IMG/VR virus record: IMGVR_UViG_2711768042_000001
Coordinates: 1 to 24,687 of that record
Reading direction: 5' to 3' (one strand)
Origin: a virus
Taxonomy: Duplodnaviria; Heunggongvirae; Uroviricota; Caudoviricetes
DNA: 24,687 nt
Shown here: positions 1,169-23,886 of the stretch, piece after piece
Numbering within the stretch: the stretch's first letter is position 1
Layout of the letters: each line of letters begins with the position of its first letter
The notes under the pieces: model-generated
Told to the model about the DNA's origin: nothing
Database searches by the model: none
Seen by the model: the letters and a program-made list of their open reading frames with translations, nothing else
Position numbers and translations under genes: made by a program

Positions 1169-1843
1169 TTGAATACTGCCGCCAACTATGGCGGCTTTAT
1201 TTTGCATGATACTATTACCACAACGGTAACTATTACCACGGTGGTTATGATGCCTGCTGAACCTAAAGCCTATAAACGCAAATCAACGCAATTTAAGCCA
1301 CTAACAGCAATGCAGGAGGCTTATTGCCAGTCATACATCAAAACGCCTGAAAACCAGACTCAGGCAGCGATTAATGCAGGATTCTCCCCAAATACAGCGG
1401 CAGTTAAAGCCAGTGTCATGATGCGCGATGAACGCATTCAAAAACGGATTGCCGAGTTGATGGAGGAGCGCAACAAACGAATGCGCGTCAGTGCTGATTA
1501 CGTTCTCATGCGCCTGGTGGAGATCGACCAGATGGACGTGATCGACATCCTCAACGACGATGGGAGCCTTAAGCCAATCCGCGAGTGGCCGAAAATCTGG
1601 CGCACTACGCTTAGCGGCTTTGATCTGTCATCGACCATCATGAACATGAACGAGGATTCGATAGAGACAATCCTCAAAAAAATTAAATGGCCTGACAAGG
1701 TGAAGAACCTCGAACTGATTGGTAAGCACGTCGACGTCAACGCATTCAAAGAACGCCTGGATGTTAATGTGAATGTGACAATTGCTGATCGCATAGCAGC
1801 AGCCAGGAAGCGACTCAAAGAACGTCAGGATGGTAATCAGTGA
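1169..1843 (+). CDS. terminase small subunit (Terminase_2/P27-like)
   Basis: Sits immediately upstream of the large terminase with overlapping stop/start; region AMQEAYCQSYIKTPENQTQAAINAGFSPNTAAVKASVMMRDERIQKRIAEL resembles small-terminase DNA-binding domains. True start may be ATG 1247 (MMPAEPK). Confidence 0.6.
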   Translation: MNTAANYGGFILHDTITTTVTITTVVMMPAEPKAYKRKSTQFKPLTAMQEAYCQSYIKTPENQTQAAINAGFSPNTAAVKASVMMRDERIQKRIAELMEERNKRMRVSADYVLMRLVEIDQMDVIDILNDDGSLKPIREWPKIWRTTLSGFDLSSTIMNMNEDSIETILKKIKWPDKVKNLELIGKHVDVNAFKERLDVNVNVTIADRIAAARKRLKERQDGNQ

Positions 1844-4422: not shown

Positions 4423-4437
4423 TTACCTGAAAGGTAA
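4423..4437. promoter_or_regulatory. palindromic motif TTACC-TGAAA-GGTAA (candidate operator), site 1 of 6
   Basis: Exact string; same motif class recurs at 20015, 20601, 22348 (imperfect), 23388, 23768, always intergenic. Confidence 0.4.
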
Positions 4438-4527
4438 TAATTAGTGCGTTAAATGTCAACTATCTACGATAAATAAATCATATGTGGTTAAATTGGTAAT
4501 AATTTAATTTCGTACGGAGTCATTGAT

Positions 4528-6721: not shown

Positions 6722-6723
6722 TC

Positions 6724-7419: not shown

Positions 7420-7433
7420 GAGAGGAAATGACA

Positions 7434-8420: not shown

Positions 8421-8471
8421 CGCCTGTTATTAACCTGTGGGTCGTAACAGACCCACTAATGGAGAAAGAAG

Positions 8472-8909
8472 ATGATCACCGACAAACTGTTGATGTTCTC
8501 CGAAGCACAGGCGGTAACTGATACCGCGGCTTCTACTGACGTAATCGATCTCGGTCCAATTGACGGAAAACGTCGTGATATCGGCGTTGGTTACCCGCTT
8601 GAGTTTTGGGCGCTGGTTAACACAGCCGCCGCGGCAAGCGGTGATGCAACTGTAAACATCCAGTTGCAGACGAGTGAAAATAACAGCTCATGGACCACTA
8701 TTTATGATAGTGGCGCACTGGCAAAGACCGCCCTGACAGCAGGTAAACGAGTTGTTTCTGCAAAGGTGCCTGCCGGTGTTCAGCGATATCTGCGTGTTAA
8801 CTACTCCGTCGCAACTGGCCCACTAACGGCTGGCGAATTCACTGCTGGTATCAGTCTTGATGTTGATGCCAATACGCCGTATCCGATCCGCTCAAAAGTA
8901 ACTGGTTAA
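8472..8909 (+). CDS. putative virion structural protein (capsid decoration/accessory candidate)
   Basis: 145 aa, RBS GGAGAAAGAAG before ATG; beta-rich composition; position after the capsid gene. Confidence 0.45.
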   Translation: MITDKLLMFSEAQAVTDTAASTDVIDLGPIDGKRRDIGVGYPLEFWALVNTAAAASGDATVNIQLQTSENNSSWTTIYDSGALAKTALTAGKRVVSAKVPAGVQRYLRVNYSVATGPLTAGEFTAGISLDVDANTPYPIRSKVTG

Positions 8910-8919
8910 GGTGATATCG

Positions 8920-9255
8920 ATGTCAGGTGAGAAACCAAGATACCTCGTTCTGCGCCTCTCTCATATCCATAACACTCTGTGGCCGGAGGGGGCAGAAATC
9001 GAATACGAAGGTGAGCCTGGTAGCGCACTGGAACCTGTTAACGATGCAGCCAGACAGGCAAAAGCAAAAGTTGCAGGAAAGGTGTCAATGGCAGCAACCA
9101 GCACCAAAATCATCAACGATGTGTCAGATGATGGTGAACTGGATAAGCTCCGTGAAGAGTACGAATTGCTCTTTAACGAGAAGCCACACCATAACGCTAA
9201 AGCCGAAACGCTCCGCGAGAAGATCGCAGATAAGCGTAAAGAACTAGGCGTGTAA
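8920..9255 (+). CDS. hypothetical protein (112 aa)
   Basis: ATG 8920 with AAGGTGA 5 nt upstream (track start is GTG 8911); followed by an intrinsic terminator. Confidence 0.5.
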   Translation: MSGEKPRYLVLRLSHIHNTLWPEGAEIEYEGEPGSALEPVNDAARQAKAKVAGKVSMAATSTKIINDVSDDGELDKLREEYELLFNEKPHHNAKAETLREKIADKRKELGV

Positions 9256-9273
9256 GCCTCGCGAATCCGACAA

Positions 9274-9293
9274 GGGGCTTCGGCCCCTTTATT
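9274..9293 (+). terminator. rho-independent terminator (GGGGC-UUCG-GCCCC then TTTATT)
   Basis: 5-bp GC stem with UUCG tetraloop at 9274-9287 followed by a T-rich run; located after the capsid-proximal gene block. Confidence 0.65.
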
Positions 9294-9305
9294 GCAGGAG
9301 TGTAT

Positions 9306-9629
9306 ATGGAACTCGTAAACCTCAAAACCGGCACTGACAGCTACCAGGATGAGAGCGGAGAAACCAGAACTCGCGATGAATACCCGTGGGGGCTGTGCAT
9401 CACTCTTAATAACGACACATTGAATAAGCTGAAGGCGCAACCTCAGGGCGTCGGAACAGAAGTGATGATAACTGCAAAAGCTGTTATTCGAGGCCTGTCT
9501 GCCAGAGAAACTGACGATGGTGTTAATCGCAGCGCCGATCTGCAGATCACTGATATGGCGATCGCTCCTGTTTCCGGGGATGTAGAAAAATCAGCGGCTG
9601 AAACCCTGTACGGCAATGGGGGTGAGTAA
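9306..9629 (+). CDS. hypothetical protein (107 aa)
   Basis: ATG 9306 with AGGAG 5 nt upstream; stop overlaps next start (TAATG). Confidence 0.5.
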   Translation: MELVNLKTGTDSYQDESGETRTRDEYPWGLCITLNNDTLNKLKAQPQGVGTEVMITAKAVIRGLSARETDDGVNRSADLQITDMAIAPVSGDVEKSAAETLYGNGGE

Positions 9630-10234
9630 TGGCCTCTGTAGTAGAGATCTGCAATCGTGCGCTGTCCAATATTGGCAATAGCCGCAGCATTAACAGCCTG
9701 ACGGAAGCCAGCAAGGAAGCGGGGGAATGTTCGCTGCACTTTGAGGCCTGCCGTGATGCTGTGCTTTCTGATTTTGACTGGAACTTTGCTACCAAACGCG
9801 TGGCGCTTGCAGATACGAGCAATCCACCGCCTGACTGGGAATATGCGTATCAGTACCCGTCCGATTGTCTGCGCATTACTGAAATTATGCTTCCTGGTGT
9901 ACGCAATCCAACAGCAGCAATGCGCGTTCAGTACGAAGTTGGTGCAGACACCAACGGAACAGGAAAGTTGATCTACACAGACCAGCCGCAGGCATGGCTC
10001 AAGTATGTCTCTCGCGTTTCAGATGTGAACATGTTTGATGCCATTTTTATGGAGGCGTTGGCCTGGCGTCTTGCGGCAGCTATTAACATGGCGCTGACTG
10101 GGAATGCAGACCTCGGTACGTTTGCCCTCAATATGTACAATCGCGTGATTCTTAGTGCTGGCTCGCATAGCCAGAATGAATCACAGGAACCACTGCCACC
10201 GGTTGACGAGTTTACCATTGCGAGGTTGTCCTGA
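9629..10234 (+). CDS. tail tubular protein A-like (T7 gp11-like)
   Basis: 201 aa, immediately upstream of a ~820-aa gene, the same size pairing as T7 gp11/gp12; N-terminal region resembles gp11-family proteins in composition; translationally coupled on both sides. Confidence 0.55.
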   Translation: MASVVEICNRALSNIGNSRSINSLTEASKEAGECSLHFEACRDAVLSDFDWNFATKRVALADTSNPPPDWEYAYQYPSDCLRITEIMLPGVRNPTAAMRVQYEVGADTNGTGKLIYTDQPQAWLKYVSRVSDVNMFDAIFMEALAWRLAAAINMALTGNADLGTFALNMYNRVILSAGSHSQNESQEPLPPVDEFTIARLS

Positions 10235-12705
10235 TGGCTATCAGTTGGATCCAGCCCAGCTTTGCCGGTGGTGAGATTGGACCGTCGTTGTACGGTCGTA
10301 TCGACATGGCGAAGTACCAGGTGGCATTGCGCAAGTGCGATAACTTTATCGTGCGGCAGTATGGCGGAGTTGAGAATCGACCTGGTACGCGTTTTGTCGG
10401 TGCCGCCAAATACCCAAATCGGAAATGCCGCCTGATCCCGTTCCAGTTCTCGACGGTTCAGACTTATGCTCTGGAGTTCGGACACCAGTACATGCGCGTT
10501 ATCAAAGATGGTGCGTTGGTGCTGAACAGCAGCAATGTTATTTATGAAATTTCCACGCCATATACTGAAACCGATCTGTTCCGAATTAAATTCACGCAAA
10601 GCGCAGACGTGCTTACGCTGGTTCATCCGGCATACCCGCCGAAAGAGTTGCGCCGCTATGCGCATGACAACTGGCAACTGGTTGATGTGGTAACGAAGAA
10701 CGGGCCATTTGAAGATATCAATATTGACGAGTCAGTGACGGTTTATGCCAGCGCCAGCACCGGGACAATTACGCTAACGGCAAGCGCCTCTATTTTTGGC
10801 GCGGAGCAGGTAGGCAAATTGTTCTATCTGGAACAGCCTGCAGTGGATTCTGTGCCGGTATGGGAAACCAGTAAGAGTACGTCGATTGGCGATATTCGCC
10901 GTGCAGACAGTAACTACTATCGCGCCGTTACAGCAGGCAAAACAGGTACTTTGCGCCCTTCGCATACAGAAGGCACATCATGGGATGGCTGGGGCGGATC
11001 CGGTGATGATGATACTGGCATTGAGTGGGAATATCTGCACAGTGGTTTTGGCATTGCCCGTATCACTGCTGCAAATGGAACTACTGCAACTGCCGAGGTG
11101 ATTTCCTATATCCCTTCGCAGGTCGTGGGCGAGGATAATGCCAGCTATAAATGGGCTAAATATGCCTGGAACAGTGTTAATGGTTATCCTGGCACTGTTG
11201 TTTATTATCAACAACGTCTTTACTTCGCCGCATCGACTGCGTTTCCTCAGACTATCTGGGCCAGCCGTACCGGGGATTATAAGGATTTTGGCAAAAGCAA
11301 TCCTACGCAGGATGACGACAGAATTATCTACACCTATGCCGGACGTCAGGTTAATGAGATCCGCCACCTGATTGATGTTGGTTCTCTGGTGGCGCTGACT
11401 TCCGGAGGTGAGTACGTCATCACCGGCGACCAGAACAAAGTGTTAACCCCATCATCATTTGCATTCAGCTCTCAGGGATCAAATGGCTCAAGCAACGTCC
11501 CGCCAATTGCCGTGGCGAATATTGCTCTGTTCGTCCAGGAGAAAGGCAGCGTTGTCCGTGATCTGGCCTACTCATTCGATGTTGACGGCTATCAGGGGAA
11601 CGACCTGACCATCCTTGCCAATCATCTTTTTCAGAAGCACAGCATTGTTGACTGGTGCTTCTCGATAGTCCCTTACTCCAGCGCCTTCTGCATTCGTGAT
11701 GACGGTAAATTACTGGTGATGACCTATTTGCGTGATCAACAGGTTTTTGCATGGGCACCACAGTCCAGTACCGGAAAATATGAAAGCACATGCAGTATCA
11801 GCGAAGGCAATGAAGATGCGGTGTATTTCGTCATTAACCGAACCGTTAACGGGCAAACAGTGAGATACATCGAGCGACTGTCCAGCCGTTTATTTACCAG
11901 CGATGAAGATGCTTTCTTTGTTGATTCTGGCCTTAGCTATGATGGAAGAAATACGTCTGACAGAACGATGACCATCACTGGTGGTTCTGGCGAATGGGAT
12001 TACCGCGCGGAATATACAATCAGTGTTTCTGGTGGTGCGTACTTCACCAGTAGTGATGTCGGCGCGCAACTACAGTTCCCTTATACCGGAACTGATCCTG
12101 ATACTGGCGATGAGGTGTCAAAAGAATTACGTTGCGACATTATTTCTGTAACCAGCAATACCGCTGTAGTGGTTCGTGCTAACAGGAACGTCCCGCCATC
12201 CCTCAGGAATGTGGCCACCACGAACTGGCAGATGGCGCGCCGGACATTTGGAGGCCTGTCTCATCTTGAAGGCCAGACCGTAAACATTCTCTCTGATGCG
12301 AACGTGGAACCACAGAAAGTGGTTTCCGGAGGTGCCGTCACGCTGGAATCTCCGGGGGCTGTAGTGCACATCGGCCTGCCAATAACTGCTGAATTCGAAA
12401 CACTGGATATCAACATTAACGGACAGGAAACGCTGCTGGACAAAAAACAGGTAATCCCCTCCGTTACTCTGGTTGTGAATGCCAGTCGCGGCATCTGGGC
12501 GACTACGCCCGGCGGTAAATGGTACGAATATCCACAGCGTGAATTCGAGTTCTACGATGATCCTGTTGATGATGCTACCGGAAAAGTAGAAGTGAAACTG
12601 GACAGTAACTGGGGCAAAAACGGACGTGTAAAAATCCGTCAGCTTGATCCGTTGCCGCTGTCTGTTCTTGCCGTTATTCCTCGCCTTACTGTTGGGGGAT
12701 TCTGA
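10234..12705 (+). CDS. tail tubular protein B-like (T7 gp12-like)
   Basis: 823 aa, coupled start (TGATG), position and size; N-terminal motif pattern (SFAGGEIGPSLYGR...) similar in style to gp12-family proteins. Confidence 0.6.
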   Translation: MAISWIQPSFAGGEIGPSLYGRIDMAKYQVALRKCDNFIVRQYGGVENRPGTRFVGAAKYPNRKCRLIPFQFSTVQTYALEFGHQYMRVIKDGALVLNSSNVIYEISTPYTETDLFRIKFTQSADVLTLVHPAYPPKELRRYAHDNWQLVDVVTKNGPFEDINIDESVTVYASASTGTITLTASASIFGAEQVGKLFYLEQPAVDSVPVWETSKSTSIGDIRRADSNYYRAVTAGKTGTLRPSHTEGTSWDGWGGSGDDDTGIEWEYLHSGFGIARITAANGTTATAEVISYIPSQVVGEDNASYKWAKYAWNSVNGYPGTVVYYQQRLYFAASTAFPQTIWASRTGDYKDFGKSNPTQDDDRIIYTYAGRQVNEIRHLIDVGSLVALTSGGEYVITGDQNKVLTPSSFAFSSQGSNGSSNVPPIAVANIALFVQEKGSVVRDLAYSFDVDGYQGNDLTILANHLFQKHSIVDWCFSIVPYSSAFCIRDDGKLLVMTYLRDQQVFAWAPQSSTGKYESTCSISEGNEDAVYFVINRTVNGQTVRYIERLSSRLFTSDEDAFFVDSGLSYDGRNTSDRTMTITGGSGEWDYRAEYTISVSGGAYFTSSDVGAQLQFPYTGTDPDTGDEVSKELRCDIISVTSNTAVVVRANRNVPPSLRNVATTNWQMARRTFGGLSHLEGQTVNILSDANVEPQKVVSGGAVTLESPGAVVHIGLPITAEFETLDININGQETLLDKKQVIPSVTLVVNASRGIWATTPGGKWYEYPQREFEFYDDPVDDATGKVEVKLDSNWGKNGRVKIRQLDPLPLSVLAVIPRLTVGGF

Positions 12706-13169
12706 TGATCGATGTTCAAATTATTCCCGCAACCGAAGAGCATCTTCAGATGATTTTGCCGGATGTTCGTCAGGCTGATATTGACGAACTGTATGCGGTA
12801 TCACTGATGACTACCGAAGATGCGCTGCGTGTTGGTCTGCGTACTGCGACTATGGCCTGGTCAGGATTTGCGAACGGAGAACTGGTAACCATGTTTGGCG
12901 TATCTCCGGCGTCAATGATCGGTGGCAATGGTACGCCCTGGCTGGTCGGAACCAGCCGTATCGAAAAATATCAGAAGACATTTCTTCGCCACTGCCGCCC
13001 TGTATTGCAGCAGATGCTGGCAGTTTATCCGCGCCTGGAAAACTATGTCGACGAGCGAAACCATGTTGCCAAAGCATGGCTGCACTGGCTTGGATTCAGG
13101 CTTGAAGAAGCCGCGCCTTATGGTGCTCTTGGTCTTAATTTCCACAGATTTCACATGGAGAGAAAATAA
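12705..13169 (+). CDS. putative internal virion/tail assembly protein (gp13 position)
   Basis: 154 aa, coupled to flanking genes; assignment by synteny only. Confidence 0.45.
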   Translation: MIDVQIIPATEEHLQMILPDVRQADIDELYAVSLMTTEDALRVGLRTATMAWSGFANGELVTMFGVSPASMIGGNGTPWLVGTSRIEKYQKTFLRHCRPVLQQMLAVYPRLENYVDERNHVAKAWLHWLGFRLEEAAPYGALGLNFHRFHMERK

Positions 13170-13714
13170 TGTGCGATCCGGTTATTGCTGGTGGCGCAAT
13201 GCTCGCCATGAGTGGCATTCAGGCATACACCCAGTACCAACAGGGAAAGTATGCCTCGAAGGTTGCAGAAGCGAACGCAGATATAGCCACAGCTCAGGCA
13301 AATGATGCAATAAACAGAGGTAACGCTGAAGCTGAGCAACGGCGCAGAGAGACCCGACAGCGGCTTGGTACACAGGCGGCGACAATGGGGGCTACCGGCG
13401 CTGATTTATCTACAGGTAACGCGCTGGATATATTTGGCGACACTGCCCAGTTTGGCGCTCTTGATTCTCTGACGACGGTGAATAACGCGCAACGCGAGGC
13501 TTACGGTTATCAGGTTCAGGCTGCCAACTATAAAGCAGAAGCCAGTTCAGCCCGTAAACAGGGGAATGTGGGAGCAGCAACAACATTGCTCACTGCGCCT
13601 CTGAAGGCATATGGTGCGTACCAGATGTTTGGTGGGACGTGGAGTCCGTTTACTCAAAGCACTCCTGCGCCAATCGGGGCAGCAGCAGGAACCAGATTAC
13701 CCGGAGGATTATAA
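13169..13714 (+). CDS. putative internal virion protein (gp14 position), Ala/Gln-rich
   Basis: 181 aa, ATG overlaps upstream stop (TAATG); low-complexity helical composition. Confidence 0.45.
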   Translation: MCDPVIAGGAMLAMSGIQAYTQYQQGKYASKVAEANADIATAQANDAINRGNAEAEQRRRETRQRLGTQAATMGATGADLSTGNALDIFGDTAQFGALDSLTTVNNAQREAYGYQVQAANYKAEASSARKQGNVGAATTLLTAPLKAYGAYQMFGGTWSPFTQSTPAPIGAAAGTRLPGGL

Positions 13715-16422
13715 TGCCAGTCGTACCAACAGTATCCGGACGTCAGGTGCAAAGTCGTGGTGTGCAAACCGGTGGTTTTCAGACCTTCGATGTTCCTCAA
13801 GCAGGTCAGGTGCTGGCGAATGTCGCAGATCAGTATGCGGTGGCATATGGTGAAGCCAGGCAGAAAGCGAATGTTGCATTGTCTCAGGATGCCATCCTTC
13901 AGCTTAATCAGCGCAGCAATGAACGTCTTTATAACCCTCAAACCGGTTTTTATGCACAACAAGGCAAAAATGCGATTGGTAAGGGGCAAGAGTACATATC
14001 TGGATTTGATCAGGATGTGGAAGAAATAGCTGCTTCATTGACTGATGAAGCAGCAAGAAATATGTTTTTGCAACAAGCCAGAACACAGAAAATTCAGTTC
14101 AGTACTGGAGTTCTCAGACATGAGATAGGGCAGACAAATGCCTATGAAGATGAGCAATATCAGGCAACGAGAAAATTATGGATACAAAATGAAGCGGATG
14201 CCTGGAATGACCCGCAAACTGCCACTTTAGCCAGAAATTCCAGAATGGTAGCCATTGCTAGATATGGAGCTGCCAGGGGATGGTCACAAGAACGCATTCT
14301 GGAAGAAATAGAAAGTGATGATCGCCGTGCCACAGAAATGCGGGCGAAGAATTATGCCGCTGCCAATCCAGAAGGATGGCTAAATGGTCTGTTTCAGAAA
14401 AATGATTCTGGAGGCATGGACATGCGTGCCATACGCCTTGTTGAATCAGGTGATCGACATTTTAATCCTGATGGTAGTCTTCTTGAAGGACCGATAACAT
14501 CTTCTGGAGAGAGAGCCCAGGGGAAATACCAGTTAATGCCGGGCACAGGGAAAGAACTGGCGGCCAAGCGTGGCGTTAAATACAACCCTACGGACGAACA
14601 ACAGCATGAAATGCTCGCCAGTGACTATGTAAATCAACTGTATGGTAAGTACGGCTCCGAAATATTGACCGGAGCAGCATATAACTGGGGGATGGGTAAC
14701 GTGGATAAACTGATCGCCAAAGTCGGTGATCCACGTAAAGGTGAAATATCAGAAGAAGAATTTATCCGAAATCTTCCATCAGAAACACAAGGGTGGCTTT
14801 CCCGATATAGAAAAAATAAAACTGGAATGGATCCGCTGACTATTTATCAAATAGATAACCTTGCTAATAGTCAGATAGAAAAGCAAAGGAAGTTAATATT
14901 AGAACAGCTTGAGCCAGCTATTAATAACACCATGGCCCAGCTATATAACGGTGAGGTTCCAGATTATATACCGGCTCAGGAGACCATCATCAGGGGGTAT
15001 GGAAAAAACGCAGATAAAATAATCAATCAACTGGATATAGCGATTGATAACGCGAGAATATTCCAGGCAATTCAGTATTTGCCTCCTTCTCAGCAGCAAG
15101 AAGAAATGCAGAAAGTGAAGCCTGAGGTTAACGATCCTCACTATGCGTTAAAACTCGATGCTTACGGAAAATTGTCTGCATTGCTTCAGAGATCAAATGA
15201 AGCAATTCAGGCGCAACGGGATTCACGCAGATTTAATGAGGCGCTGACAATAGGTGAAAAATTAGACCCAAGCAACAAGTCAATGCAGAAAGCTGCTGAT
15301 TACACAGAAATGGCGCAGAACTTTCGTATTAATGATGCCTCCACTCATGATGGGGTTGTTCGGCTTGTGGCTCAGACTGGCATAATGCCTTCGCAGGTCA
15401 TCACGCAGCTTTCAGCAGTATCCCGATCCAGCAATCAGGAAGTGGTTAAAAATGCGGCGGAACTGTTTAGTCGGTTATATGAAACAGACAATGCATCTAT
15501 TGGAAATATGCCGAAGGATATGCAGGGTTTTTATCTGACTGTTAAGCAACTAACTGATGCAGGGATGTCTTCTGATGCTGCTATTGTGGAAGCGCAGAGT
15601 AAGACATACAACCAGACAGATGCACTAAGGGCGCAGCTCTCATCTGTTCAGAGTACAAGAGAATACAAAAAAGAGCGTGACAGCGCAGCCAATTCTGCTG
15701 TCAGCAATATGGCTCATTGGCTTCGCTGGGATCCGTCTGCGGATGACCAGACGCCGGAAGCAGCGCTCTTTCGCAATGACTATCAGATGCTGTATGACGT
15801 TAACTATCGCCTTGCTGGTGGTAACGCTGACGTAGCGAAGCAAATGACCAACCAGCAGATAGCCCGCACCTGGAGTATCAGCGAGGTCAACGGGGAAGCA
15901 CAGTTTATGAAATATGCACCGGAGGCGCTTTATCAATATGGGCCGTCAGGTTGGATTGCAGCGCAATGGAAGGCTGAAAAAGAAAAAATCATGTATGGCG
16001 ATGACTTACATAAACCGGCTCCTTCATTTAACCGACCTTCAACTGAGGCTGGTGCATTGGGACTGAATAAGCCACGCTCACTGGTTGGAGGTGAGTTGAT
16101 TCTCGTTCCTGACTTATCAACTCCGAGAGATAAGCTTTATTCAGTTGTGATCAGAACAAAAGATAAAAATGGTATTACGAGGGATGATTTATTTTATGAC
16201 AAGCATGGAAGACAGATGCGCTGGGGGCCATCACTAGAAGATTGGGAACCTTATAAGAAAATGCAGCAGGAACGGGAGCAGCACGAGCAGGAAGAAATTA
16301 TGCGTGGACAGGCTATACGAAACTTCAAAGACAAGCATCGCGCTCTGGATGAGCAGTATCAGCGCCTGCATAACGAACGTATGGACAAATTTAAAGATTA
16401 CTTTTCGTGGGGATCTAAATAA
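13714..16422 (+). CDS. internal virion (ejection) protein with soluble lytic transglycosylase domain
   Basis: ATG 13714 with GGAGG upstream (track ORF begins earlier at 13639, overlapping the previous gene). SLT motif block: RLVESGDRHFNPDGS...GKYQLMPGTGKELAAKRG...AAYNWGMGNV (catalytic E-S motif, QLMP, AYNxG). Confidence 0.8.
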   Translation: MPVVPTVSGRQVQSRGVQTGGFQTFDVPQAGQVLANVADQYAVAYGEARQKANVALSQDAILQLNQRSNERLYNPQTGFYAQQGKNAIGKGQEYISGFDQDVEEIAASLTDEAARNMFLQQARTQKIQFSTGVLRHEIGQTNAYEDEQYQATRKLWIQNEADAWNDPQTATLARNSRMVAIARYGAARGWSQERILEEIESDDRRATEMRAKNYAAANPEGWLNGLFQKNDSGGMDMRAIRLVESGDRHFNPDGSLLEGPITSSGERAQGKYQLMPGTGKELAAKRGVKYNPTDEQQHEMLASDYVNQLYGKYGSEILTGAAYNWGMGNVDKLIAKVGDPRKGEISEEEFIRNLPSETQGWLSRYRKNKTGMDPLTIYQIDNLANSQIEKQRKLILEQLEPAINNTMAQLYNGEVPDYIPAQETIIRGYGKNADKIINQLDIAIDNARIFQAIQYLPPSQQQEEMQKVKPEVNDPHYALKLDAYGKLSALLQRSNEAIQAQRDSRRFNEALTIGEKLDPSNKSMQKAADYTEMAQNFRINDASTHDGVVRLVAQTGIMPSQVITQLSAVSRSSNQEVVKNAAELFSRLYETDNASIGNMPKDMQGFYLTVKQLTDAGMSSDAAIVEAQSKTYNQTDALRAQLSSVQSTREYKKERDSAANSAVSNMAHWLRWDPSADDQTPEAALFRNDYQMLYDVNYRLAGGNADVAKQMTNQQIARTWSISEVNGEAQFMKYAPEALYQYGPSGWIAAQWKAEKEKIMYGDDLHKPAPSFNRPSTEAGALGLNKPRSLVGGELILVPDLSTPRDKLYSVVIRTKDKNGITRDDLFYDKHGRQMRWGPSLEDWEPYKKMQQEREQHEQEEIMRGQAIRNFKDKHRALDEQYQRLHNERMDKFKDYFSWGSK

Positions 16423-19400
16423 TGCCGTTCTATCCTGTATCTGAATCAAACAATAACGGATTTATTTCTGCTGGTCTCGCCATTCCTGAACCTGATGAAC
16501 AGAGTTTTGATGTGCATCCGCCAGAAGGTAAGAACCCTGAACCTCGTCCCAAAGAGCCTTCATTGCTTGCCGCAGCAATACGACAGAACAATATTCTGGC
16601 TGGTTTTTTCCGTCCTGCCAGACAGTTTGAACCGGTCGAGGGTTATAACCCATATGCTGATAAAAATGAGTTGCACGGTTATGAATACTGGGGGGCGAAA
16701 TTTGCAGATTCCCGATCGCCAGAGGAAACGGCGTGGATTAAGCAGCAGATAGATGATGAAAATGAAGATCGGCGTTTTATCTCTGAAGCAGGCTTAGCTG
16801 GTGGAATTGCCAGTGCAACAGCGATGCTTTTTGACCCGGTTACTGTTGCGTCAATGTTTATCCCAGGTGCTCAAGGAGGGGCACTGGCGCGTATTGGCTC
16901 ACAGATTGCGATTGGTGCTGCCGGTACTGCATTAAGCGAGGTTGTACTGAATAATCAGCAAATAACACGCTCATGGGGTGAAAGTGCCGCTCACGTTGCA
17001 GCGGGTGCGATGATGAGCGGCGTGTTTGCCAGTGCTGGTGTTGCGCTTTCGCCATCCGTCCGGGCTGCAGCCACACGTGAGGTTGCTGATGCTCTTGATA
17101 ATATGAGCATTACATCAGCGACTGACAGGGCTGCCGCTTCGCTTTCCGATGGTGGTAGTGTTGGTGCTATGAAAATTGATACAGCGACTCTGGATGATTT
17201 AACCCCTGTTTCCGGTGGGTGGGTTGGAAAGGCTGCATGGAAAGCAGGGAGCTATCTTACTCCTTTGACAAGGTTAATGGAGTCTCCGTCCAAGACGGTG
17301 CGAAAAACAACGCTGGAGTTAGCCGAAAATAATTTCACCCTTAAAGGAAATGAAAGGGGGATTGAAACACCGGTAGCTGTAGAAACCCGTACACGTGGAT
17401 GGCAGCGTGAAGAAGCTGCTGTTGTTGTCGGAAATAAACAGGCATACGCAAAGTATAAAGCTGATGGTGGTGACATGAGTTTTGATTCATTTCGTCAGCA
17501 GGTTGGGAATGCTATGCGAAGCGGTGATGTGCATGCTAATCCTGTTGTTCAGGAAACGGCGCAGGCGATGCGAACTGTATTAAATCGGGTGAAAGTTGAA
17601 ATGCAAAAGCTTGGTTTATTGCCGCCAGATGAAGAACTGAAAGCATTAGGCCAGGCAAGCTATTTCCCACGCATATATAAAGTTGGAAAAATAATCAGTG
17701 AACGCGATAAATTTCGACGTATTTTGGTTGACTGGTGGTCGAGAGGAAATAAAACACTGGATCCTGAGGATGCTGAAATTGCAGCGGATATCGTAATTAA
17801 TAAAATTACTGGTGCTAAGGTTCCACAGGATTTTGTCAGCGTATTTTCTGTAAAAGCCGCAGGTAGTACGAAAGAAAGAACATTAAATGTTCCTGATAGT
17901 CTTATCAGGGATTATCTTGAAAGTGATGTGAATTACGTGCTGCAACGTCATATCCGTGAAGCGGCAGCAGAGATTGAGTTGACGAGAACATTTGGCAAAC
18001 GAACTATGACTGAGCGTCTGCAATTAATTGAGGACGAATATGACAGTCTGTTACGGGAAGTGCCTGAAAAAATAAAGGCGAAATATGACGAAAGTGTGGC
18101 AAATCTGAAAGCACGTTATGAGAGCAATGGTGAAGTTGTTCCTCAGGGTAAACTCGATTCATTAATGCGAAAGTACGAAAAGGAATTACGGAAAGAACAG
18201 TCCAGACTTTCAAAATCAAGAGCAAATGATCTCAGAGACATAACAGCATTACGCGATCGTCTTGTTGGTACATATGGTATGCCTGATGATCCGTCTTCGT
18301 TTTTTGTTCGTGCTGGCGCTTTTCTGCGGGATGTGAACTTCACGACCAAACTCGGTGGAATGACAGTATCAGCTATTCCAGATCTGGCCAGAGGGGTTAT
18401 GGTTAATGGTTTCCGTAACACCATGAAAGGCTATGCTTCTCAGATATCCCAATCACCGGCATTTAAGGCCAGCAAAGAAGAGATGTTGAAGATGGGGATT
18501 GGATTGGAAACTGTACTACATTCACGTTCTCGTGCAATTGGTGATCTTGTTGACAGTTCTTCCAGGACAACAGCAGTCGAAGCAGGAATGGAGCGAATTA
18601 CTGATGCCTTCGGCAAGCTGACACTCATGGATCGATTTAATGACATAAACAAATCCATGAACGGAATGCTCACGTCAGACGGTATTTTGTCTGGTGCGTT
18701 TTCTGCACGTCGCATGGCAAAACTCGGTATCAACGACAATATGGCGGCGCGTATTCGCAGTGAGTTCGAGAAACATGGTGAGGTAATTGATGGATGGCAC
18801 ATTGGTAACTTTGATAAATGGGACGATCAGTACGTTGCCGGAGTATTCCAGTCAGCGGTTCTGAAAGACGTTAATAACACTATCATCACCCCCGGTATTG
18901 GTGACACACCTTTATGGGCGAGTACTCCAATGGGGCGAACGATATTTCAGTTTAAATCATTCACAACGGCTTCATACAACCGTGCGCTACTTGGTGGGTT
19001 ACAGGAAGGAACTGCGCAATTTTATTATGGCACTGCATTTCAGATTGCTCTTGGCTCACTGGTCTATGCGCTAAAAGAAGCATCGAAAGGGAAAAATGTT
19101 GACTGGTCACCAGAGAAGCTGGTGCTTGAGGGTATAGATAGATCCGGTATTCTTGGGCCATTGATGGAATATAACAACATGGCTGAAAAGGCTACTGGTG
19201 GTGCTGTTGGGCTGGGGGCTTTATTTGGCACTGGCACACAGTCTAGGTATGCCAGTCGTGGATTCGTAGGATCTCTATTCGGACCGTCATTTGGTCTTGC
19301 GGATAGCATCATTGATGTGACCGCAGGAGTGTTGAATGGTGATGCCGGTGATCGTATTGTGCATAATGTCCGAACCCTGATACCAGGCAATAACCTGTTC

Positions 19401-19445
19401 TGGATTGCGCCACTAATAAACCAAGTGGATCCGGTGATGCGTTAA
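16422..19445 (+). CDS. large internal virion/DNA-injection protein (gp16 position)
   Basis: 1007 aa, ATG overlaps upstream stop (TAATG); last gene of the + strand structural block before the accessory locus. Confidence 0.6.
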   Translation: MPFYPVSESNNNGFISAGLAIPEPDEQSFDVHPPEGKNPEPRPKEPSLLAAAIRQNNILAGFFRPARQFEPVEGYNPYADKNELHGYEYWGAKFADSRSPEETAWIKQQIDDENEDRRFISEAGLAGGIASATAMLFDPVTVASMFIPGAQGGALARIGSQIAIGAAGTALSEVVLNNQQITRSWGESAAHVAAGAMMSGVFASAGVALSPSVRAAATREVADALDNMSITSATDRAAASLSDGGSVGAMKIDTATLDDLTPVSGGWVGKAAWKAGSYLTPLTRLMESPSKTVRKTTLELAENNFTLKGNERGIETPVAVETRTRGWQREEAAVVVGNKQAYAKYKADGGDMSFDSFRQQVGNAMRSGDVHANPVVQETAQAMRTVLNRVKVEMQKLGLLPPDEELKALGQASYFPRIYKVGKIISERDKFRRILVDWWSRGNKTLDPEDAEIAADIVINKITGAKVPQDFVSVFSVKAAGSTKERTLNVPDSLIRDYLESDVNYVLQRHIREAAAEIELTRTFGKRTMTERLQLIEDEYDSLLREVPEKIKAKYDESVANLKARYESNGEVVPQGKLDSLMRKYEKELRKEQSRLSKSRANDLRDITALRDRLVGTYGMPDDPSSFFVRAGAFLRDVNFTTKLGGMTVSAIPDLARGVMVNGFRNTMKGYASQISQSPAFKASKEEMLKMGIGLETVLHSRSRAIGDLVDSSSRTTAVEAGMERITDAFGKLTLMDRFNDINKSMNGMLTSDGILSGAFSARRMAKLGINDNMAARIRSEFEKHGEVIDGWHIGNFDKWDDQYVAGVFQSAVLKDVNNTIITPGIGDTPLWASTPMGRTIFQFKSFTTASYNRALLGGLQEGTAQFYYGTAFQIALGSLVYALKEASKGKNVDWSPEKLVLEGIDRSGILGPLMEYNNMAEKATGGAVGLGALFGTGTQSRYASRGFVGSLFGPSFGLADSIIDVTAGVLNGDAGDRIVHNVRTLIPGNNLFWIAPLINQVDPVMR

Positions 19446-19466: not shown

Positions 19467-19994
19467 TCAATGGCTGTTTATGGCTTCTAAAGAAGCTTCT
19501 GCACTTATCGGCAAAGCAATAGTATCCTTGTTAGATGTGCTATTGCTTTCCAGAACTATGGAAATCCAATCCTCTTGGTTTTCATTAATTGTGCTGACAG
19601 CCATGATAGCATTCAAATCATTTTTATATATTTCTGATCGAATAAGACCTTTCCTGAATAATTTAGTTAAGTTTTCAGCTATCGACATCGCACGAATGCT
19701 AACTTTACTAAGCTCAATTGCGTCACTACCTGCGACTTTGGCGTGTTGAGAAAGAGCCATCAAAGCTATATGTGAAAATGTTTCTTCTTTTGAAAAACCG
19801 TTACTTAAAGACATGAGTGATACACCAGCTCCGTATGGAGTGAGTTTATATCCTGATACATTCAGTGCATGCTCTACAAAGGTAAGATCATCAGTTGTAG
19901 AAACATGCATATCGTTACTTTTTTGTTTTTTTGCAATAAATAAAAAAACAAAATTAATAATCACGATGCCGACGATGATTAAGAAAACTTCCAT
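19467..19994 (-). CDS. membrane-anchored accessory protein (single N-terminal TM); superinfection-exclusion candidate by position
   Basis: ATG 19994 with GAGG 7 nt upstream; N-terminus EVFLIIVGIVIINFVFLFIA is one TM helix; AT-rich; sits directly after the injection gene on the opposite strand, where P22 carries sieA. Confidence 0.6.
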   Translation of the reverse strand: MEVFLIIVGIVIINFVFLFIAKKQKSNDMHVSTTDDLTFVEHALNVSGYKLTPYGAGVSLMSLSNGFSKEETFSHIALMALSQHAKVAGSDAIELSKVSIRAMSIAENLTKLFRKGLIRSEIYKNDLNAIMAVSTINENQEDWISIVLESNSTSNKDTIALPISAEASLEAINSH

Positions 19995-20014: not shown

Positions 20015-20029
20015 TTACCTTAAAGGTAA
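20015..20029. promoter_or_regulatory. palindromic motif TTACC-TTAAA-GGTAA, site 2 of 6
   Basis: Exact string 20-35 nt upstream of the 19994 start on the minus strand. Confidence 0.4.
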
Positions 20030-20054: not shown

Positions 20055-20453
20055 TTAAGTGTATACCTCCTGTTGCTCAGTGGTGATTTTACCCGGCAAC
20101 ACCTTTTTAGCTTTGTGCGGGTTAACCACATGGCCTTTAGTCCAGTACTCGTAGAGCACATCGTCACACTCTTCCTGATACTGGATTACCTTGTCGCGGA
20201 TTTCAGGGCGGACTTTGTTAGGGCTGATGCTGTTCAACCAAGCTGCCAATTTTCGTAAAGCCATACAAATCATGGCTTGCACCCCACCGGCAGAAGGTAT
20301 GGTGATTTCCACCATACCCTTCGAGAAGCGTTGAGAAATCTTCTTATGTTGAGATTTCCAGTCTAGCCCCATTCCCTCAACGATAGGTTTCATTGGGGTA
20401 TACGGTTCGCCGTTGTGATTGACAACATAAAGCTCTGCGCCGTGGAATGGCAC
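20055..20453 (-). CDS. antirepressor N-terminal-domain-like protein (P22_AR_N-like), possibly truncated
   Basis: N-terminus FHGAELYVVNHNGEPYTPMKPIVEGMGLDWKSQ...VIQYQEECDDVLYEYWTKG has the style of P22-antirepressor N-domains (from memory). Starts with GTG, no clear SD, only 132 aa, so may be a remnant. Confidence 0.45.
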   Translation of the reverse strand: MPFHGAELYVVNHNGEPYTPMKPIVEGMGLDWKSQHKKISQRFSKGMVEITIPSAGGVQAMICMALRKLAAWLNSISPNKVRPEIRDKVIQYQEECDDVLYEYWTKGHVVNPHKAKKVLPGKITTEQQEVYT

Positions 20454-20590
20454 GTTGATAGTAGTGACAAATTTGAAACATCGCTGGTTGTAAGCCAGCA
20501 GATGCTCGTTATTTTACGTCGCGGCACAATTTCTCGCTGCTGGCTCTTTTACACACATTAACCAAATATGGTTGATTTTAATATTTATAC

Positions 20591-20886
20591 GCGCTTATCA
20601 TTACCTTTGCGGTAAATTTACATTGCATTCCTCTTGTGCCATAGTAATCGGGCACTGGCAAAATCCAGTGTCGGGATTGGTCTCCCGGATTACTAAGTGG
20701 CGCATACCACGCCAGACGTGGTTTTTTTATGCGTATAGCACAGTCATGCCAGAATTATGGTGGGCTGAATGGGGGTCCGAAAGGACGCCGGTACCACTTA
20801 GGCCGGTAAGACCAACTCCGTTCAGTTCACCACCATCTGATTGGTCTCAGCGGTGGTGATGTAATTCGCTAAGTGGAGACGCCATC
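20591..20886 (+). promoter_or_regulatory. structured ~295-nt leader upstream of the AntA-like gene (copy 1 of an inverted pair)
   Basis: About 85-90 percent identical to the reverse complement of 23122-23412; contains TTACC-TTTGC-GGTAA (20601-20615), two stem-loops, an intrinsic terminator, then complementary sites AGACCAA (20809-20815) and TTGGTCT (20841-20847) before the RBS GGAG. Confidence 0.7.
20651..20727 (+). ncRNA. candidate C4-like antisense sRNA, copy 1 (SL1 CACUGG-CAAAAU-CCAGUG; SL2 CGGGA-UUGGUC-UCCCG; terminator CCACG-CCAGA-CGUGG then U7)
   Basis: Three consecutive hairpins ending in a U-run, about 77 nt; SL2 loop UUGGUCU is complementary to AGACCAA in the downstream leader. 5' end not determined. 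Confidence 0.45.
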
Positions 20887-21543
20887 ATGAACGCTCAACT
20901 CATCCCCGTATTCAACGGCACTATATCTAACGAAACAGCCCTACTTTGTAATGCCCGCGATCTGCACGCTTTTTTAGGTGTTAAAAAGGTGTTTGCAGCA
21001 TGGATTACAAATCGCATTTCAGAATACGAATTCATTGAAAATCAAGACTATATTTTGCTTTCCAATTTGGGAAAGCAAACATCTGGTAGAGGCGGCCACA
21101 ACCGCAAAGAGTACCACCTCACCCTTGATACAGCCAAAGAGCTGGCGATGGTCGAGCGTAACGAAAAAGGTCGCCAGATACGACGCTACTTCATTGAATG
21201 CGAGAAACGTTTAAGACAACAAGAAACAAAGGTGGAGAAGGTCTTGTCAGGCTTCATGCCAGCCATTATGGAGGCGATCAAGCTGGAAGACAAAAAAGAA
21301 TACAGCGCCCAACTGAAGCCCGGCTACCGCAGCCTGATTCATTCGCCGTCTGGTGTTCTCGGCCTGACGGAGAACTCACTGCTGATGAATTTGCTGAACC
21401 AGTTACAGGAAGACGGGCATGATGTATCGGGCGCGGCAGCGGAGCTGACCACCATGTTCTGCTACATCGTCGGTGTGAGCAAATGCCTGCGTGATATCCA
21501 GACGCACGCGGAGTACATCAACGACAAGGCAGGGTTCTTCTGA
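20887..21543 (+). CDS. antirepressor, AntA-type N-domain plus shared C-terminal domain
   Basis: ATG with GGAG 8 nt upstream; N-domain ...[16 protein letters not shown]...[30 protein letters not shown] matches the AntA pattern; the C-terminal 80 aa are near-identical to the C-terminus of the 22435..23121 gene. Confidence 0.75.
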
Positions 21544-21678: not shown

Positions 21679-22218
21679 TTACCAAAACTTGTACCACGGG
21701 GATTTATCCTTCAATGGACAATCCTTCCATCGTGTGGCCAACCATTCATATTCTTTAAAATATGTGTTTATGTTTTCTTTTTCTCTAATAGCTTGTATAA
21801 GAGGTAGCGCAATCTGATAGTTATTTACAACGGAGCTGTAAAATACTTCCTTAATCATGGTCTCATCATAAGTTTTCCGCTTCACGCTCACAGCCATGCG
21901 TTCGTAGAAACCTAGACAGTAAATTATTTCTCTCTTCTCTATCTTTTCTTCATCCGTAAGATCAGCCTGCCCATTGCTTGGATACATATAAGAGCGGAAT
22001 GATTTGTTCGATTCGTGAATGCGGCGCATAGTAGATAGGCCTTTCTTATAATCTACATCAAACCTGCTTTCACCAAGGAATACTGAAGTGTGTACTTTTC
22101 TCGCTGTATTTACATTATAAATAATAGTAGCGATAGCTATGAACAAGCCAAGCGAAACCGCGACTGCACTTACGATTTGAGCCACAGCCATGGCAAATTG
22201 CATTTCTTCACTTAACAC
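21679..22218 (-). CDS. membrane-anchored accessory protein (N-terminal TM helix), unknown function; exclusion/abortive-infection candidate
   Basis: GTG 22218 with GGAGA 6 nt upstream (alternative ATG at 22203); TM segment FAMAVAQIVSAVAVSLGLFIAIATIIY; own terminator; AT-rich; lies between the two convergent antirepressor cassettes. Confidence 0.6.
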   Translation of the reverse strand: MLSEEMQFAMAVAQIVSAVAVSLGLFIAIATIIYNVNTARKVHTSVFLGESRFDVDYKKGLSTMRRIHESNKSFRSYMYPSNGQADLTDEEKIEKREIIYCLGFYERMAVSVKRKTYDETMIKEVFYSSVVNNYQIALPLIQAIREKENINTYFKEYEWLATRWKDCPLKDKSPWYKFW

Positions 22219-22347: not shown

Positions 22348-22362
22348 TCACCCGTAAGGTAA
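22348..22362. promoter_or_regulatory. imperfect palindromic motif TCACC-CGTAA-GGTAA, site 4 of 6
   Basis: One half-site mismatch relative to TTACC-N5-GGTAA; intergenic, about 140 nt upstream of the 22218 start. Confidence 0.3.
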
Positions 22363-22409: not shown

Positions 22410-22677
22410 AGGCACATCCCTGTGCCGCCGCCCGTCAGAAGACCCCTGCCTTGTCGTTGATGTATTCCGCGTGGGTCTGGATATCACGCAGGCATTTACT
22501 CACACCGACGATGTAGCAGAACATGGTGGTCAGTTCCGCCGCCGCGCCCGATACGTCGTGCCCGTCTTCCTGTAACTGGTTCAGCAGATTCATCAGCAGT
22601 GAGTTCTCCGTCAGGCCGAGAACACCAGACGGCGAATGAATCAGGCTGCGGTAGCCGAGCTTCAGTGGGGCGCTGTA
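22410..22677. repeat. inverted repeat arm B (antirepressor C-domain coding plus 3' flank)
   Basis: Reverse complement about 94 percent identical to 21301-21568. Confidence 0.8.
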
Positions 22678-23121
22678 GGTTTTGTTCTCTACCTTCATTG
22701 CCTGCATCACTGCTGATGCTGTGGCGCTGGCTACCTGGTCGGCAACCATCTTTATGCGTTCTTCCTGCGGGAGCGAGTTTTTAATGTAACTTCCGGTGCG
22801 GCGGATCTGAGGAAGAACCTCACCTGTAACCCATTTACGAAAGCGGTAGGGGGTAGTGCCTGGTGTCACCGCATCGCGGCAGCGGAGGATCAGTGTGTAG
22901 AGGCCTGACTCGTTGATAATATTGGTTTCGCCTTGACGGCCTAAGTTAAATTTAGCCCTTTCATCATCATCAAGAGATTTTATTGACATAGTGGGGTTTG
23001 TCAGTTGAAGAGCTTTAATAACGTCTTTGGCAACAAACCAAGGATTTCCATCAATAACAATGGCTCGAATGGTTGCTTCTGATTCAAAATGAAAAACAGA
23101 TGGGGTTACGTTAGCAGTCAT
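22435..23121 (-). CDS. antirepressor, Bro-N-type N-domain plus shared C-terminal domain
   Basis: ATG 23121 with AGGTGAT upstream (track ORF extends to 23274 but that N-terminal extension overlaps the conserved leader). Bro-N pattern: IDGNPWFVAKDVIKAL...NESGLYTLILRCR...YRFRKWVTGEVLPQIRRTGSY. Confidence 0.75.
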   Translation of the reverse strand: MTANVTPSVFHFESEATIRAIVIDGNPWFVAKDVIKALQLTNPTMSIKSLDDDERAKFNLGRQGETNIINESGLYTLILRCRDAVTPGTTPYRFRKWVTGEVLPQIRRTGSYIKNSLPQEERIKMVADQVASATASAVMQAMKVENKTYSAPLKLGYRSLIHSPSGVLGLTENSLLMNLLNQLQEDGHDVSGAAAELTTMFCYIVGVSKCLRDIQTHAEYINDKAGVF

Positions 23122-23274
23122 AGCGATCACCTTTGTAGTTAGGTTAATCACCACTACCGACGCCAATCGGTTGGTGGTGAACTGTGCAGGGTTGGCGTAA
23201 CCGGCTACAAAGGACCCGGCGCACCTTTCGGTGCCCCCACACAGCCCACCATAGAATAGGTGCGCTTTACACAT

Positions 23275-23352
23275 AAAAAAACCGCTTATGCGGCATATGT
23301 GCCTCTGTAGTAACTCGGGACGCCAATCCCGGCACTGGATTTTGCCAGTGCC
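23275..23352 (-). ncRNA. candidate C4-like antisense sRNA, copy 2 (SL2 loop UUGGCG; terminator CCGC-AUAA-GCGG then U7)
   Basis: Same three-hairpin architecture as copy 1; loop UUGGCGU is complementary to ACGCCAA (plus 23192-23198, read on minus) in its own leader. Confidence 0.45.
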
Positions 23353-23387: not shown

Positions 23388-23402
23388 TTACCGCAAAGGT
23401 AA
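23388..23402. promoter_or_regulatory. palindromic motif TTACC-GCAAA-GGTAA, site 5 of 6
   Basis: Exact string at the upstream end of leader copy 2, mirroring 20601-20615 in copy 1. Confidence 0.4.
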
Positions 23403-23433
23403 ATATAAGCACTCCATTTGGTAATTGCAAACC

Positions 23434-23691
23434 TTATCTGGTTTGTTTTCGTAATTGTTCGGCACAATAGTCGAGATGTGTTTGCAGATCCTGCATAGAC
23501 ATCTGTGAGCTGGTGACGTAGTTAATCAGTGCAGTCAGTTCGGCAAGTGGGCCATCGACATTAAATCCATCCTTATCGAGATCCCGGAGTAATTTCATCA
23601 AGTGCGATCCCTCCACCAGTGACCTGACGCCTCCCGGCGTGTGAATCCTTTCGGTAAATCCGTCTTCCAGTGGATAGTGATACTGCTGCAT
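23434..23691 (-). CDS. small protein (about 85 aa) homologous to the antirepressor C-terminal domain only
   Basis: ATG 23691 with GGAG 6 nt upstream (track start 23814 is probably too long because it would cover the LexA box and operator motifs). YHYPLEDGFTERIHTPGGVRSLVEGSHLMKLLRDLDKDGFNVDGPLAELT aligns with [50 protein letters not shown]. Confidence 0.55.
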   Translation of the reverse strand: MQQYHYPLEDGFTERIHTPGGVRSLVEGSHLMKLLRDLDKDGFNVDGPLAELTALINYVTSSQMSMQDLQTHLDYCAEQLRKQTR

Positions 23692-23710: not shown

Positions 23711-23730
23711 AACTGTATATTTATACAGTA
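23711..23730. promoter_or_regulatory. LexA (SOS) box: AACTGTATATTTATACAGTA
   Basis: CTGT-N8-ACAG with an AT-rich spacer, 18 of 20 matches to the E. coli consensus TACTGTATATATATACAGTA; 20-40 nt upstream of the 23691 start on the minus strand. Confidence 0.6.
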
Positions 23731-23767: not shown

Positions 23768-23782
23768 TTACCTGAAAGGTAA
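23768..23782. promoter_or_regulatory. palindromic motif TTACC-TGAAA-GGTAA, site 6 of 6
   Basis: Exact string, identical core to site 1 (4423-4437). Confidence 0.4.
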
Positions 23783-23886
23783 TATCTATTCGTATTTACA
23801 GTCTTTCTATCCATATGTGGTTTTCCAGGTAATAGAATAACCAGATATGCGGCGCAACGGGTGCTGCGACTATCTGGAGATTTAAC

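Follow-up and report, generated by a model that had tools for sequence, protein, structure and literature searches.

A short palindrome, TTACC-N5-GGTAA, occurs at positions 20015-20029 of a 24,687-nt stretch of viral DNA (the window, which here denotes the whole of the stretch that was analysed), and it recurs at several other places in the same DNA. The question raised by this locus is which protein reads these sites. A preliminary description, made from the sequence, had proposed that they form one set of operators for a dimeric regulator encoded elsewhere, perhaps the prophage repressor or an Mnt/Arc-like protein. The comparisons presented here suggest, with a probability of roughly 0.85, that the window sites are operators of Rep, the CI-like repressor of an epsilon15/phiV10/SPC32H-type (Uetakevirus) prophage.

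Recurrence of the palindrome in the window

A pattern search of the window revealed six exact copies of TTACC-N5-GGTAA, beginning at positions 1215, 4423, 20015, 20601, 23388, and 23768 (Table 1), compared to 0.00 expected, and none was found in any of 100 dinucleotide-preserving shuffles. Allowing at most one mismatch added the sites at 1233 (TTACC...GGTTA) and 22348 (TCACC...GGTAA), giving eight sites versus 0.40 expected. Within the window, the half-sites TTACC and GGTAA were paired exclusively at a spacing of 5, with no matches at spacings 0-4 and 6-11, and a 50-kb piece of the E. coli chromosome contained no exact copies. Sites 20601 and 23388 are copies within one 103-nt inverted duplication (91% complementary), which leaves five independent exact sites in the window; the flanks of the remaining sites are mutually unrelated.

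The six sites originally listed were all recovered at their correct coordinates, five as exact matches and 22348-22362 with one half-site mismatch, but the list was incomplete, the exact site at 1215-1229 and the one-mismatch site at 1233-1247 having been overlooked. The structural genes (4749-19445) were found to be free of sites at up to one mismatch, as had been described. The further claim that the sites precede only accessory or immunity genes does not hold: sites 1215 and 1233 stand at the start of the packaging operon and site 4423 at that of the head-tail operon, and the tail-fibre unit is also headed by a site.

Table 1. Putative operators and neighbouring features of the window, with positions of a second palindrome in the window and in two related phages.
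Feature	Position	Strand	Sequence and context
tRNA-Arg, anticodon TCT	4024-4100	-	between terminase genes and structural operon
Putative operator, exact	1215..1229	.	TTACCACAACGGTAA; directly after terminator hairpin, ahead of small-terminase start; homologous to epsilon15 12-27
-10-like hexamer at site 1215	1215	+	TACTAT; weak -35
Operator-like site, one mismatch	1233..1247	.	TTACCACGGTGGTTA; 18 bp from site 1215
Putative operator	4423..4437	.	TTACCTGAAAGGTAA; about 90 bp upstream of gp3-like gene 4528-4734; homologous to epsilon15 2931-2947
Putative operator (site first flagged)	20015..20029	.	21 bp upstream of leftward 175-aa membrane-type gene 19467-19994
Putative operator	20601..20615	.	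between leftward truncated P22-type ant and rightward isrK-C4-AntA unit
isrK (20652-20728) and C4 antisense RNA (20753-20837)	20652..20837	+	leader of AntA-type antirepressor gene 20887-21543
Putative operator	22348..22362	.	TCACC...GGTAA; upstream of leftward DUF4760 membrane-type gene
isrK (23275-23351) and C4 antisense RNA (23170-23256)	23170..23351	-	leader of Bro-N antirepressor gene
Putative operator of inverted isrK-C4-ant (Bro-N) unit	23388..23402	.	overlaps -10 of TTGCAA-17-TATATT (-)
Antirepressor Ant, 85 aa	23434..23691	-	88% identical to SPC32H Ant
LexA box	23711..23730	.	AACTGTATATTTATACAGTA; just upstream of ant start codon; kept in six phages
Putative operator	23768..23782	.	divergent region, leftward small Ant / rightward tail-fibre gene; homologous to epsilon15 19895-19911
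Second palindrome, window	4478-4489, 20560-20573, 23432-23443, 23811-23822
Second palindrome, phiV10	3307, 20920, 24736, 33132
Second palindrome, epsilon15	2987, 19939, 24750, 33751

Distribution in related phages and the epsilon15 annotation

BLAST searches placed the window in the Uetakevirus group, which includes epsilon15, phiV10, SPC32H, and others. The window extends from the end of the early-right genes, through the terminase, portal, head, and tail genes, to the start of the tail-fibre gene. The immunity region, with the repressor gene rep, lies outside it, and since complete E. coli genomes covered the right end of the window to at most 74%, the MS8345 prophage (the closest E. coli prophage, inserted beside guaA) and phiV10 were used as proxies for this region.

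At up to one mismatch, 14 sites were found in phiV10, 15 each in epsilon15 and Tyrion, 18 in SPC32H (at the same places as elsewhere in the group), and 13 in Klebsiella phage BUCT711, compared to fewer than one expected in each genome. In MS8345, all exact sites fall within the prophage and none in the flanking DNA. Motif enumeration, by which the preliminary description had proposed to detect enrichment, covered the window, its relatives, and the host piece, and gave a strong excess in the window and its relatives. A similar frequency in coding regions had been named as an observation that would speak against an operator set; the phiV10 sites are almost all non-coding, 12 of the 14 lying in the non-coding 6.5% of the genome (p = 4.5e-13) and the other two inside a doubtful annotated 5′ extension of terS, and the 50-kb E. 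coli piece has no exact copy.

The arrangement of the sites is also conserved. In phiV10, the MS8345 prophage, Tyrion, epsilon15, SPC32H, and BUCT711, the repressor gene is bracketed by two or three sites per side, in an OL/OR-like manner (in phiV10 by the pairs 31953/32015 and 32727/32775; in epsilon15 by three per side); the window stops before its own immunity region. Adjacent symmetric sites between the divergent repressor and cro-like genes were thus seen in the relatives only, at 33341, 33358, and 33388 in epsilon15, and at 32727 and 32775 in phiV10, where a two-mismatch site between them was recognised by eye. Elsewhere, the shared layout consists of one site after the terminator of the cro-like gene, a pair after the replication genes, single sites ahead of int, the lysis cassette, the ant/tail-fibre divergent region, and the gp3-portal operon, and a double site ahead of terS.

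The RefSeq record of epsilon15 (NC_004775.2) carries seven features annotated as 'protein_bind / repressor / lysogeny', and all seven coincide with the motif; the scan yielded a further three, between the cro-like gene and rep, that the record omits. Window sites 1215, 4423, and 23768 align with three of these annotated epsilon15 sites (Table 1). TTACC-N5-GGTAA is therefore a feature already known, the annotated repressor operator of epsilon15/phiV10-type phages, and the seven coincidences, together with the three homologous sites, show that the interpretation first offered for the window matches existing public annotation. The proposal of a single operator set for a prophage repressor encoded elsewhere agrees both with this annotation and with the comparative evidence, as far as sequences can indicate. 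The epsilon15 annotation may itself be only a prediction. A search of the full-text literature for the motif string gave no relevant match, and the ZX5 paper defines no operators.

Conservation and consensus of the half-sites

Alignments of six phages revealed that the half-sites stand out as invariant islands, and that the central five bases and the flanks are variable. Upstream of site 4423 the aligned sequences are unrelated, and the similarity starts exactly at the operator. IMG/VR contigs (at least 120) were gathered by an invariant 28-nt block downstream of site 4423, ATATGTGGTTAAATTGGTAATAATTTAA. The 4423 site was exact at offset -57 in 113 of the 117 contigs listed with enough upstream sequence, and these 113 contigs contained 13 different 15-mers at that position. 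Over 80 distinct viral sequences, the information per column was highest on TTACC and GGTAAT, with drift in the centre and flanks. The strict spacing seen in the window was reproduced in 1.05 Mb of listed related contigs, which held 249 exact sites at spacing 5, versus 10, 3, 0, and 0 at spacings 3, 4, 6, and 7. The symmetrised consensus of 37 sites is A-TTACC-T-n-W-n-A-GGTAA-T.

The 28-nt block itself occupies window positions 4480-4507, upstream of gp3, and is invariant in six phages from four host genera. It holds a lone GGTAAT half-site, and the centre of the would-be operator lies 62 bp from operator 4423.

Rep and its antirepressor

The repressor of the MS8345 prophage (194 aa) is 98.5% identical to phiV10 gp40 and matches SPC32H Rep (PDB 5D50) over its full length (E = 4.5e-42); the Reps of close relatives are 98-99% identical to one another. 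Across six Reps (43-98% identical), the sequence NLVNRW is invariant in the N-terminal helix-turn-helix (HTH), which would fit the identical half-sites. The half-sites are also identical between phages whose Reps are only 42-45% identical, and this was counted against the Rep reading. Pfam matches of phiV10 Rep were limited to HTH families, with no S24 peptidase. In a more distant case, the cI of Pseudomonas phage PseuP_224, only the N-terminal domain is common (39% identity) and the recognition helix is different; one TTACC-N4-GGTAA is present upstream of this distant repressor gene, and no cluster.

The Rep-Ant switch of SPC32H (PDB 5D50, 5D4Z) was reportedly described by Kim & Ryu in 2013 and by Kim et al. 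in 2016. In the secondary literature, SPC32H Rep is described as carrying its DNA-binding domain at the N-terminus, a dimerisation domain in the middle, and a tetramerisation domain at the C-terminus, and as occupying palindromic DNA in tetrameric form (a dimer of dimers). The same literature states that a tetrameric antirepressor, Ant, made after LexA cleavage, releases this Rep, and one secondary source remarks that the repression mode of the SPC32H-type repressor has 'not been extensively characterized'. The symmetric regulator anticipated in the preliminary description is in keeping with these accounts, but a simple dimer is not, the homologous repressor having been reported as a tetramer on DNA. 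The Ant encoded in the window matches chain E of PDB 5D50 (E = 4e-47).

Promoter geometry and proposed mechanism

Of 74 site-orientations, 35 have a -10-like hexamer (at least 4 of 6 positions, A2 and T6 included) whose final base is exactly the first T of TTACC. The background is 1.5% when unconditioned and about 10% by a hand estimate, the latter being fairer because the motif itself fixes the last T of the hexamer. In 16 of the 35, a -35-like hexamer was also found 16-18 bp upstream. The clearest case is the leftward early promoter PL of phiV10, TTGACA-17-AATTAT|TACC, with a second operator 62 bp upstream.

Within the window, AATTAT adjoins site 4423 on the minus strand, directed towards tRNA-Arg and a 139-aa gene. 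On the minus strand, TTAACA-16-CAAAAT immediately precedes site 20015, a site that the MS8345 prophage also has, and site 20601 overlaps the -10 of TTGATT-18-TATCAT (+) and adjoins the -35 (TTTACA) of a second promoter-like site. TACTAT adjoins site 22348 on the minus strand, with a weak -35; in the MS8345 prophage, an exact site directly follows the leftward Bro-N ant gene, at what would be a position comparable to 22348. Site 23768 adjoins a conserved TTGCAA on the ant side, with no -10 in register. Site 1233..1247 includes the GGTGG Shine-Dalgarno sequence, and its last base is the A of the likely terS ATG (1247).

An operator placed over the -10, from about -7 to +9, is in the classical occlusion position, and the predicted geometry fits promoter occlusion. 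For site 4423 read rightward, towards gp3 (the first gene of the portal/head/tail operon), and for site 23768 read in the tail-fibre direction, the likely -10 is about 50-75 bp downstream of the operator, and the rightward gp3 and tail-fibre units are not accounted for by simple occlusion. Three sites adjoin a -35-like hexamer, with their centres near -45, a position also compatible with activation.

From these features, we infer binding, repression, and geometry at the operators as follows. The conserved N-terminal HTH domains of Rep would read the two ACC/GGT half-sites, and in a lysogen Rep would occupy the operator heading almost every transcription unit. The units so held in the window would be terS, gp3-portal-head-tail, the two membrane-protein genes, the two isrK-C4-antirepressor units, and the ant/tail-fibre divergent region. 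Since the operator at the majority of sites shares its first base with the end of a -10-like hexamer, Rep bound there would mask the DNA from -7 to about +9 and so block RNA polymerase. Upon DNA damage, LexA would leave the box ahead of the small ant gene, Ant would be made, and its binding to the C-terminal part of Rep would strip the repressor off all operators simultaneously.

Adjacent sites in the listed related contigs are separated by discrete distances: 17-18 bp (65 cases), 30 (4), 48 (4), 62-63 (35), 76 (3), and 81 (8), although these classes were drawn from homologous loci and the counts are not independent. Such discrete spacing classes would suit a tetramer holding two sites. Exact 62-bp pairs (centre-to-centre) are kept at two loci in all genomes examined, at 31953/32015 and 35070/35132 in phiV10, 34195/34257 and 37265/37327 in Tyrion, and 32555/32617 and 35907/35969 in epsilon15, and they bracket promoter-like -35/-10 elements. 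These pairs would fit a single Rep tetramer clamping the promoter.

Alternative readings of the sites

The alternative that survives best is that the sites are read mainly by another phage regulator, either the Cro-like protein or the phrog_536 protein, for shut-off or activation in the lytic phase. The Cro-like protein (76 aa, divergent from rep) is 76% identical between phiV10 and epsilon15, better conserved than Rep, and it matches phrog_35, a 'transcriptional repressor'; in lambda-type switches, CI and Cro use common operators. The Cro-like protein could, on these grounds, read the same sites, and from conservation alone the motif cannot be attributed to Rep. The sites near -45 that adjoin a -35-like hexamer would be in an activator-like position, and the window ORF at 787-1128 encodes a predicted transcriptional regulator. 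The epsilon15 record, however, gives the sites to the repressor, the sites are clustered on both sides of rep in an OL/OR-like manner, and the commonest geometry overlaps the -10 and +1, which is a repressing position, so that we regard a main reader other than Rep as improbable. Sharing of the sites by Rep and Cro would add to the Rep explanation and not replace it.

The Mnt/Arc-like regulator that had been suggested, of the P22 immI kind, was rejected: no RHH domain was identified by Pfam in six ORFs examined between 19.4 and 23.8 kb, the small ant gene lies behind a LexA box, and the large ant genes lie behind isrK and C4.

It is very improbable that the palindromes act as nucleic-acid structures (an RNA hairpin, a terminator, or a cruciform) or as sites of a host protein. 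Every site can fold into a hairpin with a stem of 5 bp and a 5-nt loop, and several come after intrinsic terminators, but the stem is no longer than 5 bp, has A/T-rich ends, and lacks a T-run, and the sites were not among the terminator-like matches. The half-sites are invariant, with no covariation, and the mismatches in the TCACC, GGTTA, GGTAT, and GGTGA variants are uncompensated. A host factor was rejected on the basis of the distribution, exact copies being absent from the 50 kb of host chromosome and from the DNA flanking the MS8345 prophage, and a host-factor site would not be restricted to one phage group. That the recurrence arose by chance or as a by-product of duplicated DNA, as the inverted duplication carrying 20601 and 23388 might suggest, has a negligible likelihood given the unrelated flanks of the other sites, the shuffles (0/100 reaching the observed count), the spacing-5 specificity, and the retention of the motif at homologous positions across genera and contigs.

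Antirepressor units and cargo genes next to the putative operators

Besides the small ant gene, the window contains two units in which isrK and C4 RNAs precede a large antirepressor gene. The Rfam scores are 65.5 and 74.2 bits for isrK (gathering 50) and 61.2 and 79.5 bits for C4 (gathering 45), and Pfam identified an AntA gene (20887-21543) and a Bro-N gene (ORF 22435-23274, minus strand) downstream of the C4 RNAs. The two leaders are inverted relative to each other and lie ahead of different antirepressor genes, in a P1 immI-like arrangement. Two inverted repeats were detected, 20593-20695/23308-23410 (91%) and 21285-21566/22412-22693 (94%), and they indicate that the AntA and Bro-N ant genes also have common 3′ parts. 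The listed ATG of the Bro-N ORF (23274) is upstream of the C4 match, so that the true Bro-N start is probably further downstream.

The same isrK-C4 module is present in Stx phages, a Yersinia phage, and APSE-7, where similarity to the window begins at isrK only, and TTACC-N5-GGTAA is absent within 400 bp of the modules in these phages. Having no counterpart at the foreign modules, the operator belongs to the regulatory layer of the phage group, and not to the module. By this comparison, the Uetakeviruses would therefore have placed their own operator and promoter ahead of a common isrK-C4 module.

A further leftward ORF, 20055-20453 (132 aa), contains only the N-terminal domain of the P22 antirepressor (PF10547); its MS8345 homologue is flagged as a truncated pseudogene, and the ORF is thus probably the remnant of a third large ant gene. 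The products of 19467-19994 (-; phrog_21690, unknown function) and 21679-22218 (-; DUF4760) have strongly hydrophobic N-terminal segments, and each gene has its own operator. These two cargo genes may function in superinfection exclusion or defence. If Rep is the reader, the cargo (the two C4-guarded antirepressors and the two membrane proteins) would be wired to the same repressor as the core phage genes.

Comparison with known repressor systems

The closest parallel is epsilon15, in which the palindrome is ATTACC-N5-GGTAAT (15-17 bp) and sites are likewise found before terS, before gp3/portal, between gp19(ant) and the tail fibre, next to the repressor gene, and behind the replication genes. 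Unlike epsilon15, the window represents an E. coli phiV10-like prophage with a Rep type only about 42% identical to epsilon15 Rep, and it has extra sites at the two isrK-C4-antirepressor units and at the two membrane-protein genes. The likeness to the SPC32H switch extends from the identity of Ant (88%) to the LexA box before ant and to the same motif at the same places, and the repressor of the closest prophage can be matched to SPC32H Rep from end to end; the window differs in being without rep.

As in the OL1-3 and OR1-3 regions of lambda, the operators are two-fold symmetric and 17 bp in length, and in the relatives two or three of them lie next to one another to either side of the repressor gene. 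Unlike lambda CI, this type of Rep has no S24 autocleavage domain and is inactivated by an antirepressor, and the operators precede nearly every other unit, late ones included, with pair spacings of 62, 48, and 17-18 bp. In P1, the C1 repressor acts at dispersed operators, which are asymmetric 17-mers, and one of them lies ahead of the c4-icd-ant (immI) operon, at a C1-controlled promoter. The window resembles P1 in having scattered operators for one repressor and a putative repressor-controlled promoter before a C4 and antirepressor unit, but its sites are perfect palindromes and the repressor families are unrelated. The stoperators of mycobacteriophages L5 and L1 act inside transcription units and in one orientation. 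Repressor sites are dispersed beyond one switch region in both cases, but in the window they are symmetric, intergenic, and promoter-associated, whereas the many gp71 sites found genome-wide in L5/L1 are asymmetric (PMC1934351).

In practice, the repressor-controlled promoters of this prophage can be marked in its annotation, and a clean operator consensus is provided for a phage group with a solved repressor-antirepressor structure.

A second palindrome, a candidate late regulator, and the terS start

A second palindrome, A(A/T)CCATAT(A/G/T)TGGTT (ideal form AACCATATATGGTT), occurs six times in the window, compared to 0.38 expected. Many of the operators have a copy 20-60 bp away, and at the gp3, tail-fibre, and lysis units a copy precedes the -10-like hexamer by 7 nt. 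The palindrome is conserved in six phages, is absent from control DNA, and is without annotation in epsilon15. Its position relative to promoters differs between units: it is located in the spacer at PL, 7 nt upstream at the late units, and overlapping the -35 at the ant units. A role as a single fixed promoter element was rejected, the distance to the -10 varying as judged by eye. A second regulator may act at this palindrome, and the Cys-rich phrog_536 protein, whose gene immediately precedes terS, would be one candidate.

That protein (113 aa) is the product of 787-1128 (+), the last gene before terS. It matches phrog_536 ('transcriptional regulator'), has a Cys-rich C-terminus (CGKCG...CPCDGDSQC), is 36% identical to the product of N15 gene 46, and is encoded where lambda has Q. 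We regard it as a candidate regulator of late genes. Linking the second palindrome to phrog_536 through N15 gp46 was considered and rejected, as DNA specificity is not expected to carry over at 36% identity.

One possibility is that a Rep tetramer could link two sites at fixed distances of 62, 48-50, or 17-18 bp, one being a strong distal operator and the other a full or half site near the promoter. A joint reading, in which such a genome-wide operator clamp by Rep is combined with a second palindrome read by a second regulator, is put forward as a tentative and rather doubtful proposal. If the clamp were real, the late operons (terS, gp3-portal, and tail fibre) would be gated directly, without an early-to-late cascade.

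The long terS frame used by phiV10 and PGAP, which starts at TTG 1169, crosses the terminator hairpin and both operators, and its first part (window 1169-1249) would encode a low-complexity peptide. The low complexity of this peptide, which spans the terminator and the two sites, argues for the in-frame ATG at 1247 as the true start. The start of terS is thus probably ATG 1247, as annotated in epsilon15, and the small-terminase start codon used by phiV10 and PGAP would be corrected accordingly.
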